Assembly (NCBI RefSeq): GCF_024700885.2
Contig: NZ_CP117016.1
Length of the DNA stretch: 64,000 bases
Source: Escherichia coli
Lineage (GTDB): Bacteria; Pseudomonadota; Gammaproteobacteria; Enterobacterales; Enterobacteriaceae
Direction: 5' to 3' (one strand)
Shown: positions 4,026-49,891 of the stretch, one piece after another
Position numbering within the stretch: the stretch's first letter is position 1
Layout: every line of letters starts with the position of its first letter
The notes under the pieces: model-generated
Database searches by the model: none
What the model saw: only the letters and a program-made list of their open reading frames with translations
Told to the model about the DNA's origin: nothing
Position numbers and translations under genes: made by a program

Positions 4026-4439
4026 GATAACGGTTCATGTATCCCCTGAGCTGACAGTGTACCGGTTATATTAAGCGTAACCGACAGGTTCTCCTTCATA
4101 CCATATTAAATTTTTCCAGGTATTGCCGCTGCCTTATTTCGTCCCATACAGGAAAACTCGTCTGGGTTTCTGACAAATACGTGAAACTCACAGCCCCTCA
4201 ATATCAACCACACGCTGTAAGCCGGTAATACCTGAAAATCAGCCCATTACCGCCCACGCCTCCGGCACCATTCCCTTTTGATTTCGAATTCTTTGTTGTC
4301 GCTATACCGCTTAACGTTCCCGGTATTATCCTGGTTCCCGACAACAGGAACATATTCAGCTTTTAATAACCTGAGAAGAGCCAATAAGAATCACAAAGCG
4401 GATAACACCTGGTGCGATGCAGTTGTGATTACCGAACGC

Positions 4440-40938: not shown

Positions 40939-42533
40939 CAGAATCCCTCCAGCATACGGGCCGCCTGACGACGACGGCGTGAGCTTGCCTTCACCGGCCC
41001 TTTGTTAATTTCACGGCTGGCGAAATACGCCAGCGCCAGTGCGATGGCTGAATCCCCGTGGCGTTTACCACCGTCAGCCTTTGCTTTTGAGCGTTGCTCC
41101 GGTACGCGGGGGACACCGTTCACCACCTGAACGGCCCGCAGGTCATCCAGTGTGTCTTCATCCTTTGGTAAGTCCACCAGGTTGCCGTCTTCCAGTGCAG
41201 CTTTGACCGGAGGCATATGCTCCCGGTACCAGCCTTCGGTTGGCATCACCTGCTGAACCCGGCCGGAGCCGTAGCGCTGCATGGCGTATTCAGCCAGATA
41301 GGCACCATTACCACGGGCATCAAACGCTGCACCCAGCAGACCGGGCAGGCCATCCATCAGATACCAGGTGATTTGCTCCTGCTGTCTGAACGGCACGTTA
41401 CGCAGCTCCAGTACGAATGGCACGCGTCGTACCAGGTTCTTCTCCTGCAGCAGGGGATAGTCCACCGACAAATCACCGCTACGGCCAAAGTCGCGCCCCA
41501 GGAAAGAGCGGGCATCAGTGGGGAGTGCCTCCAGCAATGGTTTCAGATACTCATCAAGCCAGTCCTGCGTCTCGCGGAAGCGAACCTCATCAGACAGCAG
41601 TTCATAACCTTCCTTGCAGGTCAGACGCAATACCGGCGTATCAGCGGACATGCGGGACTCTATCAGGGCACGGGACAGCCAGGCACCGCCACCGTTGGCC
41701 GGAATACAGTCAAGCTCTTCGGATGCGCCGGCACCGTAGAATTTGTACACCGATGCCATCCAGGCCTGCTCGGATGCCTCCGACCATTCCTTCCCGGTGC
41801 GCAGACAGACGCGCCGGAACAGCCCCTCAGATACGGCTTCCCGGAAAGTGATGCGATGTATGCTGCCTCCCTGACGTCCGGCACGGATATCCCCGATAAG
41901 CGTATTGAACGGATTGTCGTCACCGTCATGGGTGGAGATAACGCGTACCTTTCCCCCCCAGATAAGCATCGCCAGCGCCGCTTTCAGCAGTTCGTCCAGT
42001 TGCTCATGGAACGCCGCTTCGTCGATAACAATAATACCCTGACGGCCACGCAGGTTAGACGGGCGGCTGGAGAGCGCAACAATACGAAAGCCGGAGTCAG
42101 GAAATTTGATGGTGTAAGTCCTGATGTGTTTGTCGTCGTCGTCCTCTTCCCAGAATCCTTCTTCAATTTCACTGGCCGCATAGTTGAATGCCCGTGCCCA
42201 CATCGCACACGCCTGAATGTATTCGACGGTCATGTCCTGGTTATAAGCGATGTAATACACATTCATCCCGCCTGCTGGCGCAGAAGAGGCGGCGGTCAGT
42301 ACGTTATCGGATGCCTCAGCCCATGTAATACCGGTACGACGGCTCTTTTCTATCACCTTAAGCGGAGAGGTGTCTGCCACCCAGCGCTGCTGGTAAGGCA
42401 ACAGAACGGGAGGGGCATCCAGCGCCGAGGTATCAGGCAAAACGGGAGCAAGGTTATTCCTCCCGTCCATGGGACTCATCCCTTCGGGGCCGCCGCCAGC
42501 GGCGTTTAAAATCACTCCGGATGATTTTGTCAT
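40938..42533 (-). CDS. terminase large subunit (Mu gp28-like)
   Basis: 531 aa ...LLPYQQRWVADTSPLKVIEKSRRTGITWAEA...IVIDEAAF (Walker B-like)... Confidence 0.85.
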   Translation of the reverse strand: MTKSSGVILNAAGGGPEGMSPMDGRNNLAPVLPDTSALDAPPVLLPYQQRWVADTSPLKVIEKSRRTGITWAEASDNVLTAASSAPAGGMNVYYIAYNQDMTVEYIQACAMWARAFNYAASEIEEGFWEEDDDDKHIRTYTIKFPDSGFRIVALSSRPSNLRGRQGIIVIDEAAFHEQLDELLKAALAMLIWGGKVRVISTHDGDDNPFNTLIGDIRAGRQGGSIHRITFREAVSEGLFRRVCLRTGKEWSEASEQAWMASVYKFYGAGASEELDCIPANGGGAWLSRALIESRMSADTPVLRLTCKEGYELLSDEVRFRETQDWLDEYLKPLLEALPTDARSFLGRDFGRSGDLSVDYPLLQEKNLVRRVPFVLELRNVPFRQQEQITWYLMDGLPGLLGAAFDARGNGAYLAEYAMQRYGSGRVQQVMPTEGWYREHMPPVKAALEDGNLVDLPKDEDTLDDLRAVQVVNGVPRVPEQRSKAKADGGKRHGDSAIALALAYFASREINKGPVKASSRRRRQAARMLEGF

Positions 42534-44359: not shown

Positions 44360-45083
44360 AACTGCTGCCTCCCCATGTGAGATATCGCGGTGCCAGTTCG
44401 CGCAGGATGCGCTGCGGATAATGGCGGTTCTCCCGCCAGCTGGCCGCATTGCGTCCGGCATTCACCGTGGCGACATGTCCGAACCAGCGGGTGCTGTCCA
44501 GACCTTTCTGTGATGCAAGCCGCCTGTCCCGTTGTACCCAGCCCAGACCACCGTTATAGCCCGACAGTGTCATGGCCATACGCTCGCAGTCACTGGCGGC
44601 GCTGACACGCTGCCACAGCCAGCGGTCATAGCTGACCAGCGCCCGGATAGCCCATGCCGGATTAAACGGCTCACGACTGCTCAGCATCGGTATCAACTGG
44701 CTTATCCAGTCGGCAGTGGCAGGCATGAACTGCGCCAGTCCCTGAGCGCCAGCCGGCGAGATCGCATCAGGTCGCCAGCCGCTTTCCTGATGCAGTTGCG
44801 CGGCGAAATCGGCCACCGGCGCAGACAGTCCCCATTCAAGCCGGGCATTACGGATCACATCATCGCGATACTGCAGCGCAGCCTGCGGAGGTTGTGCTGC
44901 GCATGCCTGGCTGAAAAAGCCGCCACACCAGAGCAACATTGCGACAAAGAATACCCATGCCATATGAACCAGAAAGGTCCCGGCGCGGACTGACAGGCGT
45001 TCGGTTCTGATGAAGACCCGAAAGGCTTCGAAAGCCAGTTTCAGGGACATGCATACAATCCAGGTGATCTGCGGCCAGTTCAT
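44343..45083 (-). CDS. lytic transglycosylase endolysin with N-terminal hydrophobic segment
   Basis: SLT motif QLHQESGWRPDAISPAGAQGLAQFMPAT. N-terminal MAWVFFVAMLLWCGGFFSQACAAQ suggests a signal or SAR anchor. The true start may be internal (e.g. 44963). Confidence 0.8.
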   Translation of the reverse strand: MNWPQITWIVCMSLKLAFEAFRVFIRTERLSVRAGTFLVHMAWVFFVAMLLWCGGFFSQACAAQPPQAALQYRDDVIRNARLEWGLSAPVADFAAQLHQESGWRPDAISPAGAQGLAQFMPATADWISQLIPMLSSREPFNPAWAIRALVSYDRWLWQRVSAASDCERMAMTLSGYNGGLGWVQRDRRLASQKGLDSTRWFGHVATVNAGRNAASWRENRHYPQRILRELAPRYLTWGGSSCVASG

Positions 45084-45085
45084 GA

Positions 45086-45436
45086 TTAAAGCCCCATCGC
45101 AACAGCCAGGCAGACCGCTGCAACAATCAGTGCACGGCGGATTAACGCAGCAGAAAACACCAGGTGAAGGCCGGTCTGTACCGGGAAACGCCCTTCAGCC
45201 ATCAGCCTGTCGTCATGTTTCAGGTACTGACCGGGACGGGCTTTGGGGAAGAGCGAACGGTCAAGCCAGTAACCCAGCACTGCTGCCAGCGTGATGAGTG
45301 CCAGCTTGTAGATCACAACAGGCAGCTGCTGTGGTGAGACCAGAGCGATGGTGCCCAGCAACAGCACTGAGGTCAGCAGCCAGCCGCTGAGGCGAGGTTT
45401 TTTAACAAGGGGAATGAATTTTTTCAGTTTTTTCAT
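45086..45436 (-). CDS. putative holin
   Basis: MKKLKKFIPLVKKPRLSGWLLTSVLLLGTIALVS... with 2-3 TM helices. AAGGAGA SD before ATG 45436. It is the first gene of the leftward late/lysis operon. Confidence 0.65.
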   Translation of the reverse strand: MKKLKKFIPLVKKPRLSGWLLTSVLLLGTIALVSPQQLPVVIYKLALITLAAVLGYWLDRSLFPKARPGQYLKHDDRLMAEGRFPVQTGLHLVFSAALIRRALIVAAVCLAVAMGL

Positions 45437-45566
45437 GTGTGTCTCCTTATCTGGTGGAGACAGCATCACAAATACAGGGCGCGAAGGATTTTAAAGCGCG
45501 TTAAGAGAGCCGGGGATACGGGATGTGCAGGATAAACGATGAATTATTCACAGAGGAGAATACGAT

Positions 45567-46295
45567 ATGACGCAGACACTGAATCCGGTCATCACTGTCA
45601 CCGTGTCCGGTCCTGTGGGCAGCGGTAAAAGTTACGTACTGGCGCGAATAGAGGAAGTGGTGAAACAGGAATTCGGAAACAGCGTCATTGTCGACGCCGC
45701 AGACGTGGACGGTGAGCGCCGTATGAGTGGGGATGATCTGAGCACATGGCAGAAACCACGGGCTGGCACAGTGATCAGGCTGGAGGAATACACGGGACAG
45801 GGCCTGTTGTCATACGGCGAGGAGCGTATCTGTCGGACGAATGAGCTGCTGGATGTTATATGCCCCACGGGCCGGCAACCCTGGATACTGCCCGATGCAC
45901 TGCATGCCACCATTGCGGCACTGATGACAGTTTACGATCAGGAGCTGCTCATGAAGGAGTTACGTAAACTCACTGGTCAGTCAACAGAATGTTGTTCGTC
46001 CCCGAAGTACGGCAAACAGGAACACATCCCGATTAACCAGCCTCCCCGGTTCTTCGACGAATACCTTCTGACACCGGAAAATAAAGCTGAGCATGAAGAG
46101 ATCAAAGCGGCGTTGTTCCGGGAAATCAGGAAGATTGCTGAAATGCAACTGGAGGGCGGGCTGGACAGAGTGATGGCGAGAGGAGAATGGGCATCGCTGT
46201 TTGAAAGAGTTTCCCCGGAATTACTTCCCCTCGCACTGGCTATCGGGATTATGCAGACAGCGGATAAACCTCACTTACGTTCATTAAACACGTAA
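45567..46295 (+). CDS. hypothetical protein with N-terminal P-loop (Walker A GPVGSGKS)
   Basis: 242 aa with SD GAGGAG before ATG 45567. ITVTVSGPVGSGKSYVLARIEE...VIVDAAD. No family recognised. Confidence 0.65.
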   Translation: MTQTLNPVITVTVSGPVGSGKSYVLARIEEVVKQEFGNSVIVDAADVDGERRMSGDDLSTWQKPRAGTVIRLEEYTGQGLLSYGEERICRTNELLDVICPTGRQPWILPDALHATIAALMTVYDQELLMKELRKLTGQSTECCSSPKYGKQEHIPINQPPRFFDEYLLTPENKAEHEEIKAALFREIRKIAEMQLEGGLDRVMARGEWASLFERVSPELLPLALAIGIMQTADKPHLRSLNT

Positions 46296-46675
46296 CGCAT
46301 AATCCGGGATACGCATTCAGCGATGACTGCATTTTCACCGGTTTTTACTGCATCCAGAAGTGACTCTTTAAATGGTACGGGCCGGGGCTGCAGAAAGGTC
46401 GGCATGGCATTGAGCAGACAGAGCGTTTTTTCCGTGAGGACGACATCAGCCGCTCCCACAGCCAGCAACTGAGAGTAACGAATATAGCTGTTATCCCGAA
46501 GCCATATCAGCGTATCAATAAAACACCGGCACTTTTTCTGGTCGTGATCAACCTGGTCCGGGATATCGAAAAAACCAGAATAAATCAAAACCTGAGGTGC
46601 CGGATGCGTGTTCAGTAATCGGCAGAATATTTTGCCGGTGAGTACATAAAAATCATCATTTAAGGAGTGCATCAT
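46271..46675 (-). CDS. hypothetical protein
   Basis: 134 aa, the only long ORF in 46296-46673. Its 3' end overlaps the P-loop gene by 25 nt (convergent). Its ATG overlaps the ATG of the 46674 ORF on the other strand. Confidence 0.5.
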   Translation of the reverse strand: MMHSLNDDFYVLTGKIFCRLLNTHPAPQVLIYSGFFDIPDQVDHDQKKCRCFIDTLIWLRDNSYIRYSQLLAVGAADVVLTEKTLCLLNAMPTFLQPRPVPFKESLLDAVKTGENAVIAECVSRIMRYVFNERK

Positions 46676-46889
46676 GAATCCCCGATTAACGTTAACAGAA
46701 CATCAGCGCCGTGCTGAAGCAGTGAACAATGTTCTGGAAGATATTATCCGGTTATACCGCGGAGAACTGAGTGTCTGTCGTGCCGCTTTTCATTTTCAGG
46801 GAATACAAAAGCAGTTTGATACTTCTGTTTTTGCAGAAGGTATTACTTATGCCCTGGACCGGATAAGGTCAGAAAATCGCCCCGGATAA
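46674..46889 (+). CDS. hypothetical small protein
   Basis: 71 aa with a good SD (AAGGAG, 6-nt spacer) before ATG 46674. Predicted helical. Confidence 0.5.
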   Translation: MNPRLTLTEHQRRAEAVNNVLEDIIRLYRGELSVCRAAFHFQGIQKQFDTSVFAEGITYALDRIRSENRPG

Positions 46890-46943
46890 TCCCTAAACCA
46901 CATTAACAGAAATCCCGCCATCCCTGCCGCATCATGAAAGAAC

Positions 46944-46975
46944 GACCAGCCCGGCACCCGAAAGCCGGGCTGGTC
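46944..46975. terminator. perfect 12-bp GC-rich hairpin
   Basis: GACCAGCCCGGC-acccgaaa-GCCGGGCTGGTC, between the 71-aa ORF and the methyltransferase gene. Weak T-tract only. Confidence 0.45.
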
Positions 46976-47079
46976 ATCGCCCCACAGGAATGCGCTGTGA
47001 GCCGACCAAGGTTCAGTCAGTCTCGCGAGACCTGACCAGACTGCCATATTTTTTAATAATTGTAAAAGGCTTGCAGATT

Positions 47080-47844
47080 ATGAAAATGCAGACATTACCC
47101 ATCGTGCCGTGGATTGGTGGCAAACGCCGCCTTGCAAAACACATTCTGCCGCTGTTTCCGGCGCATGAATGTTATGTGGAGCCGTTTTGTGGGGCAGCAG
47201 CGCTCTATTTTCTTAAGACACCCGGCAAGATCGAAGTCATCAATGATATCAACGGTGAACTGGTGAATCTGTACCGGGTGGTAAAGCATCACCTGGAAGA
47301 ATTTGTCCGCCAGTTCAAATGGGCGCTGGTCAGCCGTCAGATCTACAAATGGCTGCAGATCACCCCGGAAGAAACACTGACGGATATCCAGCGTGCGGCA
47401 CGGTTCTACTACCTTCAGAAGCAGGCGTTTGGCGGCAAGGTGGCAGAGCACAGCTTCGGTACCTCCACCACATCCCCGCCACGCTTCAACCTGCTACGTA
47501 TTGAAGAAGAACTGTCAGCGGCACACCTGCGGCTTTCCAGAACAGTCATAGAACACATGGACTGGCAACAGTGCATTGAGCGTTATGATCGTCCGCACAC
47601 GCTGTTCTACTGCGACCCACCGTACCTGGGTACGGAAGGCTATGGTGTGGATTTTCCTGAAGGGAACTACTCGCGGCTGGCAGAGCTGGCCCGGTGCATC
47701 AGAGGAAAAATGATAATTTCGGTGAACGACATCCCGCAGATGCGCGAGGTGTTCACTGGACTGAACATACAGACAGTGAATATCAACTACAGTCTGGCGG
47801 GTAAACCCACGCCGCGCCGTGAACTGCTAATCTGCAACTTCTGA
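47080..47844 (+). CDS. Dam-like (D12 class) N6-adenine DNA methyltransferase
   Basis: MKMQTLPIVPWIGGKRRLAKHILPLFPAHECYVEPFCGAAALYF (AdoMet motif)...LFYCDPPYLGTEGY (DPPY catalytic motif). Confidence 0.85.
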   Translation: MKMQTLPIVPWIGGKRRLAKHILPLFPAHECYVEPFCGAAALYFLKTPGKIEVINDINGELVNLYRVVKHHLEEFVRQFKWALVSRQIYKWLQITPEETLTDIQRAARFYYLQKQAFGGKVAEHSFGTSTTSPPRFNLLRIEEELSAAHLRLSRTVIEHMDWQQCIERYDRPHTLFYCDPPYLGTEGYGVDFPEGNYSRLAELARCIRGKMIISVNDIPQMREVFTGLNIQTVNINYSLAGKPTPRRELLICNF

Positions 47845-47960
47845 AACAAAACCGGAAAGCACAATGCTTTCCGGTAAACCAAACAACTTCCACTATGTCA
47901 CTGGCGATGTTTTCTGAAAGCATCCAGATCAACCACCTGTCCTTTGTGTCCGGGTCAGTA

Positions 47961-48317
47961 TCAGCCTGCGATTTTTCCTGGTTTTGGCTGAGTATAGAAT
48001 CGCCCAATCTCAAGAAATGAGCGTTGTTGGTCTGGTGTCATGTCGTCAAAAGTATCTATTAGTTTTTGTTTTTCTGGGGAAATTTGATTCTGGTTTCTAG
48101 TCATACCATCTGTGCTCATTCCAGTGAGCAACCAATTTACATCAACATTAAACTCTTGATGCATCTTTAACAGAAACTCCCCTCCAGGCATCGCCTTTCC
48201 ATTTTCAATCTGACTGATACCACCATTAGAAATACCTAAACGAGCTGCAAATTCTCTCTGGTTCAACCCTGCTTTCTTCCTCACAGAAATAACGCGCTCT
48301 CCTATATCTTTGCTCAT
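47961..48317 (-). CDS. XRE-family HTH repressor (prophage immunity repressor candidate)
   Basis: MSKDIGERVISVRKKAGLNQREFAARLGISNGGISQIENGKAMPGGEFLLKMHQEF... It is divergent from the early operon. Confidence 0.8.
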   Translation of the reverse strand: MSKDIGERVISVRKKAGLNQREFAARLGISNGGISQIENGKAMPGGEFLLKMHQEFNVDVNWLLTGMSTDGMTRNQNQISPEKQKLIDTFDDMTPDQQRSFLEIGRFYTQPKPGKIAG

Positions 48318-48340
48318 AAAAGTGAATCTCTATCTTGATA

Positions 48341-48358
48341 TGCTCATAATTATGAGCA
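48341..48358. promoter_or_regulatory. candidate operator: perfect 18-bp palindrome in the repressor/early divergent region
   Basis: TGCTCATAATTATGAGCA. A half-site, TGCTCATAA, recurs at 48311-48319, overlapping the repressor start codon. Confidence 0.6.
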
Positions 48359-48410
48359 ATAATCTAACACATATAAGGCAAACATCATTGCATCAACAAA
48401 GGAGACAACG

Positions 48411-48599
48411 ATGACTGCAGAACAAGTCAAAGCTCTCTTCCGCCAGCGCGGGATCACTTTCACCCGCTGGGCAGAAGAAAACGGCTACAACCGCAATGAG
48501 GTATACCGCGTTCTCAACGGGCAGACCAAAGCCCGTTACGGTAAATCCCATGAAATCGCCGTGAAGTTGGGACTGAAATCAACAGCTCAGGCGGCCTAA
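48411..48599 (+). CDS. Ner/Cro-like small DNA-binding protein (first early gene)
   Basis: 62 aa, ...GITFTRWAEENGYNRNEVYRVLNGQTKARYGKSHEIAVKLGL (HTH). In the position of Mu ner. Confidence 0.65.
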   Translation: MTAEQVKALFRQRGITFTRWAEENGYNRNEVYRVLNGQTKARYGKSHEIAVKLGLKSTAQAA

Positions 48600-48645
48600 A
48601 TATTTTGAGTCTTTGTAAAAGGTTATCACATATCGCAAAAGAGGT

Positions 48646-48960
48646 ATGCAGATGAGTAAGACGAATGTTTCAAGCTCCGGCAGTCGCATCCTCCGGGTAC
48701 TCAAAGCGCTGCGCGGTCATGCCCTGAACGGTATTTCTAACGGTGAACTGGCGACAGCACTGCACGAGTCACCGGCAAACATCAACCGGGCACTCAACAC
48801 CCTCATTGAAGAAGGGCTGGCTCTGAAACTGGAGAACGGACGTTTTGCACCGGGCATCCAGTTACTGCAGATCGCCATGGCCCACAGTAACGAGATGGCA
48901 CGTGCACAGGATCGTATTAACGAAATTAACCAACGTGTCATTTCAGGTAGTCGTTTGTAA
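48646..48960 (+). CDS. winged-helix (IclR/MarR N-terminal-like) DNA-binding protein
   Basis: ...ILRVLKALRGHALNGISNGELATALHESPANINRALNTLIEEGLALK... Confidence 0.5.
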   Translation: MQMSKTNVSSSGSRILRVLKALRGHALNGISNGELATALHESPANINRALNTLIEEGLALKLENGRFAPGIQLLQIAMAHSNEMARAQDRINEINQRVISGSRL

Positions 48961-48970
48961 GGAGTAATCA

Positions 48971-49891
48971 ATGGGACGTACCAAATCACCGATTAACACT
49001 GAACTGAACGCCGATGTACCGCTGTCGGATGATCTCAACGTCAGCCTGAATGCCATGACACAGCATCGCATGGAGATCATGCAGCAGTTTGGTGATGGAC
49101 TGCCTTATGAACGTGAACGCATCGTTCACGAAGCACGTTTTTATATGGCGCAGAGTGCTGAATCTATGTTGGAAGCGGGTAAGCGGCTGATCATCTTAAA
49201 AGAAAATGAACCGCATGGTGATTTCACAAATATTCTGGAAAACGACCTCGGATTAGCACCACAGGTAGCTCGTCGCATGATGCAGGCCAGCGTGAAATTT
49301 CTCGGCAATGGAGATGAACAGCCAAAACGCTCAGCGCTGAGCGTTTTGGGAAAAACCAAGTTATATGAACTGATGGTTCTGGATGACGAAGAACTCGACG
49401 CATTAGCTGATGGTGGAACCGTCGCCGGTGCAACGCTTGATGATATTGATCGCATGACCAGCCGCGAACTGAAGGCCGCCCTGCGTGAAGCGCGCGAAAC
49501 CAACGCAGCTCAGCAACAGGTGCTTGCCGGAAAGGACGAAAAAATCAACGAACTGGCCACAAAACTGGAGAAGAAATCGCGCCTGCAACCTCCGCCGCCA
49601 GACGAAGAACTGAAAAAATTGCGGGCGGAAGTGACGGCATTAGCGGTTGAGGCCGAATCGGCTATCGCCGTCCGGCTGTCCAGTGTTTTTGAGACCCTGT
49701 GTGAATACTGCACCAAAAACATGATCGATACCCCCAGAGATTTCATGGCCGGTCTGGTCTGCCAGATTGAACGCAGTGTTCATGCATTACGTGAGACGTT
49801 TGACCTTGAGGCCGCTCCATCGGGTAACGATGCCCCCGCCTGGCTGACCGAACCGGAACCTGAAATCAACCGACCGGAGGATATGCAGTAA
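48971..49891 (+). CDS. DUF3102-like early protein
   Basis: 306 aa ...FYMAQSAESMLEAGKRLIILKENEPHGDFTNILENDLGLAPQVARRMMQ... Assignment from memory of Mu-like early regions. Confidence 0.5.
   Translation: MGRTKSPINTELNADVPLSDDLNVSLNAMTQHRMEIMQQFGDGLPYERERIVHEARFYMAQSAESMLEAGKRLIILKENEPHGDFTNILENDLGLAPQVARRMMQASVKFLGNGDEQPKRSALSVLGKTKLYELMVLDDEELDALADGGTVAGATLDDIDRMTSRELKAALREARETNAAQQQVLAGKDEKINELATKLEKKSRLQPPPPDEELKKLRAEVTALAVEAESAIAVRLSSVFETLCEYCTKNMIDTPRDFMAGLVCQIERSVHALRETFDLEAAPSGNDAPAWLTEPEPEINRPEDMQ

Follow-up and report, generated by a model that had tools for sequence, protein, structure and literature searches.

This report concerns a cluster of three small genes, referred to here as open reading frames (ORFs) a, b, and c, within a 64,000-nucleotide stretch of Escherichia coli DNA (contig NZ_CP117016.1 of the RefSeq assembly GCF_024700885.2; hereafter the window). 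On the basis of sequence comparisons, ORF b (phrog_2266) and a partner whose start codon overlaps its own, namely ORF c in the window, are shown to constitute a conserved phage gene pair, and both the architecture of this pair and the relationships among its domains can be followed across phages of different types. The pair is carried, together with ORF a, on an accessory cassette in a BcepMu-like prophage, and the mobility and dispensability of the cassette are directly apparent from its relatives. The explanation that we favor as a whole, in which the cluster is a non-essential, horizontally exchanged cargo cassette occupying a BcepMu-like hotspot between the holin promoter region and the backbone terminator upstream of a Dam-like methyltransferase gene, and in which b and its partner would be expressed in mutual antagonism, is given an even chance of being right. 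The relevant features are listed in Table 1. The coordinates, strands, lengths, and overlaps that had been assigned to the three ORFs in an initial annotation of the window, made from its letters alone, were all correct, as was the 130-nt extent of the divergent region between the holin gene and ORF a.

A phage gene pair with overlapping start codons

Homologues of ORF b occur in BcepMu-like prophages, in P2-like phages, and in lambda-like prophages of Pseudomonas. At 58 of the 62 IMG/VR loci that encode such a homologue, there is a divergently oriented ORF of 63-86 aa, the ATG of which overlaps that of b by two bases in the palindrome CATG. The overlap between the b and c start codons that had been pointed out in the window (CATCATG at 46670-46676) was confirmed, and is conserved throughout the family. 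In the Salmonella lineage (L120) it amounts to 8 nt. The P2-like homologues from Escherichia, Salmonella, and Klebsiella (Midge, FSL SP-004, and ST147-VIM1phi7.1) are positioned between gene A/DinI and cos/portal, and those of the lambda-like Pseudomonas prophages (L099/L103) are flanked by the large terminase gene on one side and by the gpW-like and portal genes on the other. In every lineage the Shine-Dalgarno (SD) sequence of the partner (GGAG or GAGG) falls within codons 3-5 of b, and that of b (GGGA, GGAG, or GGAA) falls within codons 3-5 of the partner. The good SD initially ascribed to ORF c was found as AAGGAG at 46661-46666.

Because each SD sequence is embedded in the first codons of the opposing gene, both messenger RNAs would need 5' leaders that are antisense to the start of the other gene, and the promoters would therefore be expected to lie face to face inside coding sequence. 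The pair thus displays, as deduced from its sequence, the layout of divergent genes with 5'-overlapping transcripts that characterizes face-to-face switches. Synonymous diversity is lower over the first ~16 codons of both genes among 34 P2-like haplotypes, and the start region in the window is unusually unstructured as RNA on both strands. In three settings the partner is oriented in the direction of the phage operon around it and b against that direction, namely the window (a, c, and Dam), the lambda-like loci L099/L103 (terminase, partner, gpW-like protein, and portal), and the final part of the P2 early operon.

A further stretch of low synonymous diversity is located in b codons 37-52 of the P2-like loci (for example, L067, nt ~4090-4135), which is ~110-155 nt from the b start. 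The values there are 0.07-0.20 versus a mean of 0.35. This stretch points to an embedded element, which may be a promoter, an operator, or an RNA element; when the same codons were read for a σ70 promoter, none was convincing.

All three ORFs are real genes, with PHROG matches to phrog_3787 for ORF a (E = 5e-170), phrog_2266 for ORF b (E = 3e-44), and phrog_4490 for ORF c (E = 7e-53). Orthologues with 31-54% identity are present in a BcepMu-like prophage of Serratia marcescens, and the a-b-c trio recurs in three diverged lineages, specifically those of Serratia, Salmonella (L120-L122), and an E. coli variant (P0014). In agreement with the initial statement that they have no recognizable family, none of the three belongs to a curated family in Pfam, NCBIfam, or PADLOC. 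Sequence and profile searches against the Protein Data Bank (PDB) with a, b, c, the N-terminal domain of ORF a, the b family, and the partner family returned nothing beyond a Walker A motif. The database entries for these proteins all read "hypothetical protein." No publication dealing with DUF2513, these PHROGs, or the start overlap was found in a literature search, and the transposon-directed insertion-site sequencing (TraDIS) compendium paper contains no mention of these genes.

Members of the ORF b family are ~135-170 aa in length, and the alignments that were built comprise 40 distinct b sequences and 43 partners. The ratio of nonsynonymous to synonymous substitution rates (dN/dS) for b between E. 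coli and Serratia is 0.19, with the synonymous sites near saturation. Despite this purifying selection the gene is left unannotated in the GenBank record of Escherichia phage PhiKM (L001; PQ738613.1, 31078-31457); it is annotated in the RefSeq genomes. The 3' end of b overlaps that of ORF a by 25 nt. The gene carries a 325-nt internal deletion in B771, L018, and L021 and a disruption in L016/L056, all of which have intact copies of ORF a and ORF c. The possibility that b was a later insertion between a and c was ruled out, for B771 retains the first 18 codons and the last 25 nt of b, and remnants at both ends signify an internal deletion. Some of the E. coli prophages that carry a-b-c additionally encode, between c and Dam, a diverged paralogue of b with 126 aa and 27% identity (L019, 7588-7968 on the minus strand; L124 and L125, 4393-4773 on the minus strand).

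The ORF b protein is possibly winged-helix-like, as suggested by the pattern WL..GYI ... V.LT.KGL..LN. It resembles the YjcQ/DUF2513 prophage winged-helix proteins in its size, in a helix, in a "GYI" strand, and in an "LT.KGL..L" motif. Unlike those proteins it has a further helix at the N-terminus, an insert that varies, and a helix at the C-terminus, and the winged-helix fold is at most a putative one. One of 11 family members matched YjcQ with E = 0.083, and the b family profile matched PDB entry 2hgc over the same stretch with E = 1.6. No significant Pfam match to DUF2513/YjcQ was obtained. The Pfam DUF2513 model itself gave no match to six members at E ≤ 5 or to 11 diverse members at E ≤ 1, and the DUF2513 label, which is the UniRef name of the Serratia b orthologue, was not reproduced by it.

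The relationships among the partner domains are best appreciated through the Pseudomonas proteins. P3, an 83-aa partner encoded head to head with the Pseudomonas b homologues, matches residues 169-224 of ORF a with E = 3e-6, and matches an 89-aa Serratia protein with E = 6e-10. The 65-aa Salmonella partner (L120) matches P3 at 1e-14 and the Serratia orthologue of c (c') at 3e-7, and the Serratia c' in turn matches phrog_4490 at 1.6e-7. As judged from these intermediates (P3, the L120 partner, and the Serratia c'), ORF c and the C-terminal module of ORF a are distant paralogues. Given that c, P3, and the C-terminal module of ORF a are paralogous, b would be flanked on both sides by related small helical domains, one of which is free (c) and one of which is fused to ORF a. 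The broader proposition that all partner families are homologous is supported through intermediates for c, P3, and the ORF a module, but not for the P2-type partner phrog_2454.

Table 1. Positions of the cassette, its genes, and the flanking elements in the window
Feature	Position	Strand	Remarks
Holin gene	45086..45436	-	PF13272 (1e-41), phrog_1528; opens the leftward lysis/late operon; bounds the slot on the left
14-bp near-palindrome TTAAAGCGCGTTAA	45491..45504		Middle of the 130-nt region between the holin gene and ORF a; backbone element
Accessory cassette, ~1.41 kb	about 45521..46930		From alignment with E. coli N21 and C483; edges good to ~10 nt
ORF a, 242 aa	45567..46295	+	phrog_3787; mosaic protein
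ORF b, 134 aa (133 aa from the second ATG at 46672)	46271..46675	-	phrog_2266; antisense, between ORF a and ORF c
Palindromic CATG	46673..46676		2-nt overlap between the b and c start codons
ORF c, 71 aa	46674..46889	+	phrog_4490; small helical partner protein
Hairpin, 12-bp G+C-rich stem	46944..46975	-	Followed by UUCUUUCAU on the minus strand; backbone, outside the cassette
Dam-like orphan methyltransferase gene	47080..47844	+	D12-class; PF02086 (6e-29), TIGR00571

The variable slot and the mosaic protein ORF a

In E. coli N21 and C483, the prophage backbone is shared with that of the window and the holin gene is followed directly by Dam, with about 35 nt in place of the cassette. In other relatives the slot is filled differently. 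Klebsiella phage KP12 and E. coli 8178 have a gene encoding a DUF2441 protein there, B20123 has a truncated ORF a accompanied by membrane proteins, and L031 has a zinc-ribbon protein. The comparison of related prophages is therefore in accord with the earlier proposal that the three genes are accessory and occupy a variable slot: these are not core genes conserved in all relatives, as the whole cassette is missing from some that have the same gene order, and the combination of absence from syntenic relatives with different cargo at the same site is that expected of a moron. Neither the alternative cargo nor the genes of the window gave more than weak matches to the PADLOC defence models.

A base composition that differs from that of the backbone, also typical of morons, was observed, although the difference is modest. 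The guanine plus cytosine (GC) content of the cassette is 49.9% (46% for b and 44% for c) as compared to 57.5% for the late region and 55.2% for the early region. The counts given initially were exact (36.7% at 46621-46680 and 48.3% at 46501-46560 versus 68.3% at 41221-41280), and the cluster is indeed AT-richer than the phage backbone, but 21% of equal-sized windows across the 64 kb lie below the cassette value and the adjacent immunity region is also AT-rich. To speak of a foreign origin, as had been done, is an overstatement; 49.9% is close to the value for the E. coli chromosome, and the leader and the N-terminal domain of ORF a recur at the same slot in diverged relatives.

The 2.9-kb stretch surrounding the cassette was matched in 634 of 5,426 complete E. 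coli genomes. For 491 of these the query coverage was at least 80%, mostly at 99.9% identity in strains of sequence type 131 (ST131), EC958 among them. In the same set of genomes, the N-terminal domain of ORF a was counted in 569, ORF c in 498, and ORF b in 491.

Hotspots of this kind are known from the P2 and P4 phages (tin/old and Z/fun in P2, and the antiviral loci of P2/P4), where dispensable, variable cargo is likewise found at a fixed site and is exchanged for unrelated genes in close relatives. P2 carries tin and old where the P2-like b/partner pair lies, between gene A/DinI and cos/portal. Unlike the P2/P4 hotspots, the cassette described here has no homology to tin, old, fun, or the PADLOC v2 models, its host phage is a transposable, BcepMu-like one, and its slot adjoins the late promoter. 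The Mu com-mom late operon is comparable in that an accessory unit adjoins a gene for DNA modification, at the margin of a genome of the Mu type, and is possibly driven by the late activator C. Unlike com-mom, with which it shares no sequence similarity, the cassette lies next to a Dam gene that belongs to the backbone and exists without it.

The ORF a protein is distinctly modular, with a mini P-loop domain formed by residues 1-76, a middle module extending from ~77 to 135, and a C-terminal module from ~169 to 242. An exhaustive HMMER search demonstrated that wide conservation is limited to residues 1-76. This N-terminal domain heads ~50 cluster representatives of 75-364 aa that possess unrelated C-terminal modules, and it also stands alone in proteins of 78-90 aa. 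The neighborhoods of the standalone loci L033-L037 were uninformative, and a scan of contigs with the domain profile was swamped by generic P-loop matches. The middle module is dispensable, a 182-aa variant of ORF a being devoid of it. The variants that keep the C-terminal module (242, 247, 182, and 224 aa, and the 89-aa Serratia form) adjoin b and its partner, and the truncated forms of 141 and 158 aa, from which it is missing, are confined to loci with neither b nor c. In Serratia, the gene at the position of ORF a encodes an 89-aa protein that matches the last ~60 residues of ORF a and is missing the P-loop domain; b and c follow in the same arrangement.

The initial annotation had noted an N-terminal mini P-loop consisting of VSGPVGSGKS followed by VIVDAAD. 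The first motif held up. The sequence GPVGSGKS corresponds to residues 15-22 and satisfies the Walker A consensus GxxxxGK[ST], with Gly 15, Gly 18, Gly 20, Lys 21, and Ser 22 invariant or nearly so in 17 diverse members, although some family members have GKN or altered glycines. The second did not, for Asp 43 of VIVDAAD, the would-be Walker B residue, is replaced by Glu, Val, Ile, Thr, or Lys in other members. The remaining conserved positions of the domain are Glu 50 with the Arg that follows, Asp 57, and Trp 61. The best Pfam match is to AAA_30, at 16.5 bits versus a cut-off of 27, and the matches span ~30-40 residues rather than a full α/β core, so that ORF a cannot be regarded as a credible complete nucleoside triphosphatase (NTPase) but rather as a Walker A mini-domain of ~76 aa. 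The AlphaFold2 model of ORF a was unusable (predicted local distance difference test score of 45). With respect to strand, GxxGxGKS loop, and helix, the N-terminus resembles the minimal "phosphate-loop" proteins and the Walker A regions of the ABC and AAA families. Indeed, over ~35 residues its profile matches the nucleotide-binding domains of ABC transporters (8e-5) and the designed phosphate-loop protein 6c2u (2.5e-4). Unlike the established P-loop families, it has an apparent three strands, falls below every family threshold, and is fused to shuffled, non-enzymatic modules.

An unannotated plus-strand ORF of ~107 aa with a strong SD was observed in KP12 (L002, 6506-6829), and also in L006 and L112-L118; it shares ~80 nt with the 3' end of the DUF2441 gene. 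The mini P-loop proteins P0064, P0075, and P0077 end in the same "KTYTLS...SHFASGENNVM.IG" module that this ORF encodes. The notion that each C-terminal module in the ORF a family matches a neighboring minus-strand gene was considered. It holds for the P3-like module and b, but fails for the "YTLS" module, given that P0077 is followed directly by Dam and no DUF2441 gene is present.

Expression and possible roles of the pair

From this architecture we infer the overlap of the transcripts and the direction of control; b and its partner may interact, and the biological role may lie in exclusion or defence, or in phage regulation. The 5'-5' overlap, taken together with the co-direction of the partner and the phage operon, suggests reciprocal expression, and mutually antagonistic expression of b and its partner would be the most likely working principle. 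According to this scheme, b, which lies on the strand opposite to the rightward a-c(-Dam) transcription unit, would be produced as long as the phage operon around it is not transcribed, as would be the case in the prophage. Once the operon is activated, antisense read-through of b would lower its level and the partner-domain proteins would be produced, and these may additionally bind to and neutralize b. In strain EC958, Forde et al. (2015; PMC4659465) reported one prophage-borne D12-class methyltransferase, M.EcoMIV of prophage Phi2, which was transcribed far below dam in mid-log culture and for which no methylation motif could be assigned. M.EcoMIV would appear to be the Dam enzyme encoded next to c. 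If so, rightward transcription is low in the lysogen, which, if anything, disfavors expression of the rightward genes in that state.

Carried further, this scheme leads to a bolder proposal, offered here as a speculation that is much more apt to fail than to hold. The pair would represent a new and widespread class of compact bistable modules in the temperate phages of Enterobacterales and Pseudomonas, in which b is an effector expressed during lysogeny against incoming phages or competitors and is switched off by antisense lytic read-through, both at the RNA level through the 5'-5' overlap and at the protein level through the partner domain, thereby providing built-in self-immunity. The proposal would also make the ~76-aa Walker A domain of ORF a an example of a minimal P-loop protein that occurs in nature.

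Several observations weigh against mutual antagonism between b and its partner and against the domain relationships on which it draws. Four of the 62 b homologues have no head-to-head partner, and the P2-like examples are closely related to one another, so that the 58 loci reduce to roughly five or six independent lineages. A σ70 scan revealed no more sites than expected by chance, and none judged by eye was convincing for a, b, or c. The homology between c and the C-terminal module of ORF a is transitive, in that a direct profile comparison places the two in the same register with P = 0.014, which is not significant by itself. The P2-type partner phrog_2454 gave P = 0.02-0.3 in comparisons with the other partners and is not demonstrably related to them. 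Finally, the possible winged-helix nature of b derives from a sequence pattern and from YjcQ matches below threshold.

The closest known parallels to the layout are the face-to-face switches, namely the Pe/Pc promoters of P2 with C and Cox, pR/pL of phage 186 with CI and Apl, and pIN/pOUT of IS10. By analogy only, these share with the b/c pair divergent transcripts that overlap at their 5' ends and interfere, and small proteins. Unlike the b/c pair, these known switches have their promoters in tens of base pairs of intergenic DNA with the coding sequences apart; nothing separates b from c, the start codons of which share bases, and the SD sequences are themselves coding. The resemblance to P2 C/Cox and 186 CI/Apl invites the alternative that survives best, although we consider it unlikely: a phage-internal switch in which b would act as a repressor that binds DNA and would be countered by c (or by the ORF a C-terminal module), a small regulator like Cox or Apl, the two jointly controlling the cassette, Dam, or late-promoter insulation, with other phages left unaffected. 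The winged-helix-like pattern and weak YjcQ matches of b would suit such a role, as would the faint matches of c to excisionase and helix-turn-helix models (E = 0.08-0.36) and the annotation of the Midge b homologue as a putative transcriptional regulator. Every one of these DNA-binding assignments is sub-significant, however, and no inverted-repeat operator is conserved at the b/c junction. Moreover, the module is dispensable and is situated at unrelated sites in different phage types, even inside a head-gene operon, which is odd for a developmental regulator.

Somewhat less probable, and in our view distinctly doubtful, is a toxin-antitoxin or abortive-infection module in which b is a growth inhibitor restrained by c and the C-terminal module of ORF a, and is freed upon infection or loss of the cassette. 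The module is small and mobile and resides in hotspots, including the P2-like location of tin and old, and the partner is small and helical like many antitoxins. The genome counts for b and c (491 and 498) fit with b never occurring without c, and both c and a outlast the deletion or disruption of b. On the other hand, b and c are divergent and a and b convergent, rather than adjacent and co-transcribed as in type II toxin-antitoxin systems, no match was found to any toxin, antitoxin, or PADLOC model, and b displays no recognizable enzymatic or membrane-toxin features. The four partnerless homologues are likewise difficult to reconcile with an obligatory antitoxin. More generally, the defence role that had been entertained for the cluster drew no match from PADLOC or any other defence family. 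Against PADLOC-DB v2, ORF a gave matches at the level of a Walker A motif only (E of at least 0.003), b and c gave none, and Dam matched generic methyltransferase models. Membership of these proteins in the P-loop NTPases, in DUF2513/YjcQ, in the PADLOC systems, or in the type II toxin-antitoxin systems is thus not supported.

A still smaller likelihood is attached to the idea that the cassette is anti-defence or host-takeover cargo, with a and c serving as lytic-phase inhibitors, the shuffled ORF a modules as an inhibitor array, and b merely as a regulator. ORF a starts ~70 nt from the conserved palindrome, the probable late-activator site, such that co-activation with the lysis operon is possible; the shuffling of modules behind a constant N-terminal domain is typical of arms-race proteins; the neighboring Dam represents a classic anti-restriction function; and rightward transcription seems to be low in the lysogen. 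Yet there is no similarity to known anti-defence proteins, and the tight conservation of b with its partner is left unexplained. The least credible alternative, that ORF a is an ATP-hydrolyzing P-loop effector (a defence ATPase or kinase) with b and c as accessory subunits, can draw on the family-wide Walker A motif and on sub-threshold matches to AAA_30, KAP, ABC, and Zeta-toxin models and to designed phosphate-loop proteins, but is very improbable in light of matches that cover strand 1, the P-loop, and helix 1 only, the small size and variable Asp 43 of the domain, and a Serratia cassette that lacks it while retaining b, c, and the C-terminal module.

The cassette is present in ~9% of complete E. 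coli genomes, largely those of the pandemic ST131, and relatives of the b/partner pair are found in thousands of contigs from Salmonella, Klebsiella, Enterobacter, and Pseudomonas, located where phages keep defence and conversion genes. Overlapping divergent starts with mutually embedded ribosome-binding sites represent an extreme, experimentally tractable form of antisense-coupled expression. Should the pair control a function of the lysogen, it would be a switch or exclusion system of a new kind among those that prophages encode. Should it be only a minor regulator, the finding still defines a hotspot of BcepMu-like prophages and a family of modular proteins in which a mini P-loop domain occurs naturally.

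Prophage setting and flanking elements

The BcepMu-like prophage of the window is 99.9% identical to Escherichia phage PhiKM (Bcepmuvirus), the annotation of which includes a Mu C homologue. From left to right, the gene order is that of the late and lysis genes up to the holin gene (leftward), ORFs a, b, and c, the hairpin, the D12-class Dam gene (rightward), the repressor gene (leftward), and the early operon. The last, which is rightward and to the right of the repressor gene, contains a ner-like gene, an IclR-like gene, a DUF3102 gene, and the transposase gene. The RefSeq form of the holin is 116 aa in length with its start at 45436. A search of 44500-49000 against Rfam identified no RNA family.

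The near-palindrome between the holin gene and ORF a is kept in all of the BcepMu-like relatives, including those with an empty slot, and is a perfect palindrome, TTAAAGCGCTTTAA, in L030 and L120. Because the phage encodes a Mu C homologue, it is considered a candidate site for the late activator and could serve both directions.

At the other side of the cassette, both the hairpin and the Dam-like gene mentioned in the initial annotation are present, but the hairpin belongs to the backbone rather than to the cassette. It is conserved with compensatory changes in N21, C483, and B771 and has z = -3.75 on both strands, with a U-run on the minus strand only. Because it is kept in relatives with an empty slot and has a U-rich tail on the minus strand, it is probably a terminator of leftward transcription from the repressor side, positioned ahead of the lysis genes, and not a terminator for c. 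No convincing plus-strand terminator was found for the cassette. A second terminator-like hairpin with a U-run is located at 47851-47875 on the minus strand, directly 3' of the repressor gene, and with the first it forms two serial barriers before the lysis operon.

The Dam gene is likewise part of the backbone, being present in the empty-slot relatives N21 and C483 and also in KP12. Its start differs between records, namely the ATG at 46990 in PhiKM (284 aa) and that at 47080 in RefSeq (254 aa). The latter is favored because the 90 nt upstream overlap conserved non-coding backbone just 3' of the hairpin.

A second variable slot lies between Dam and the repressor gene at 47845-47960. It is almost empty in the window and has equivalents in L004, L008, L031, and L002. 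In N21 and C483 this slot contains a 401-aa membrane protein with a weak KwaA-like match (E = 8e-5) and an NA37 nucleoid-associated protein, in L031 a 153-aa membrane protein and a 297-aa protein, and in KP12 a 177-aa gene.

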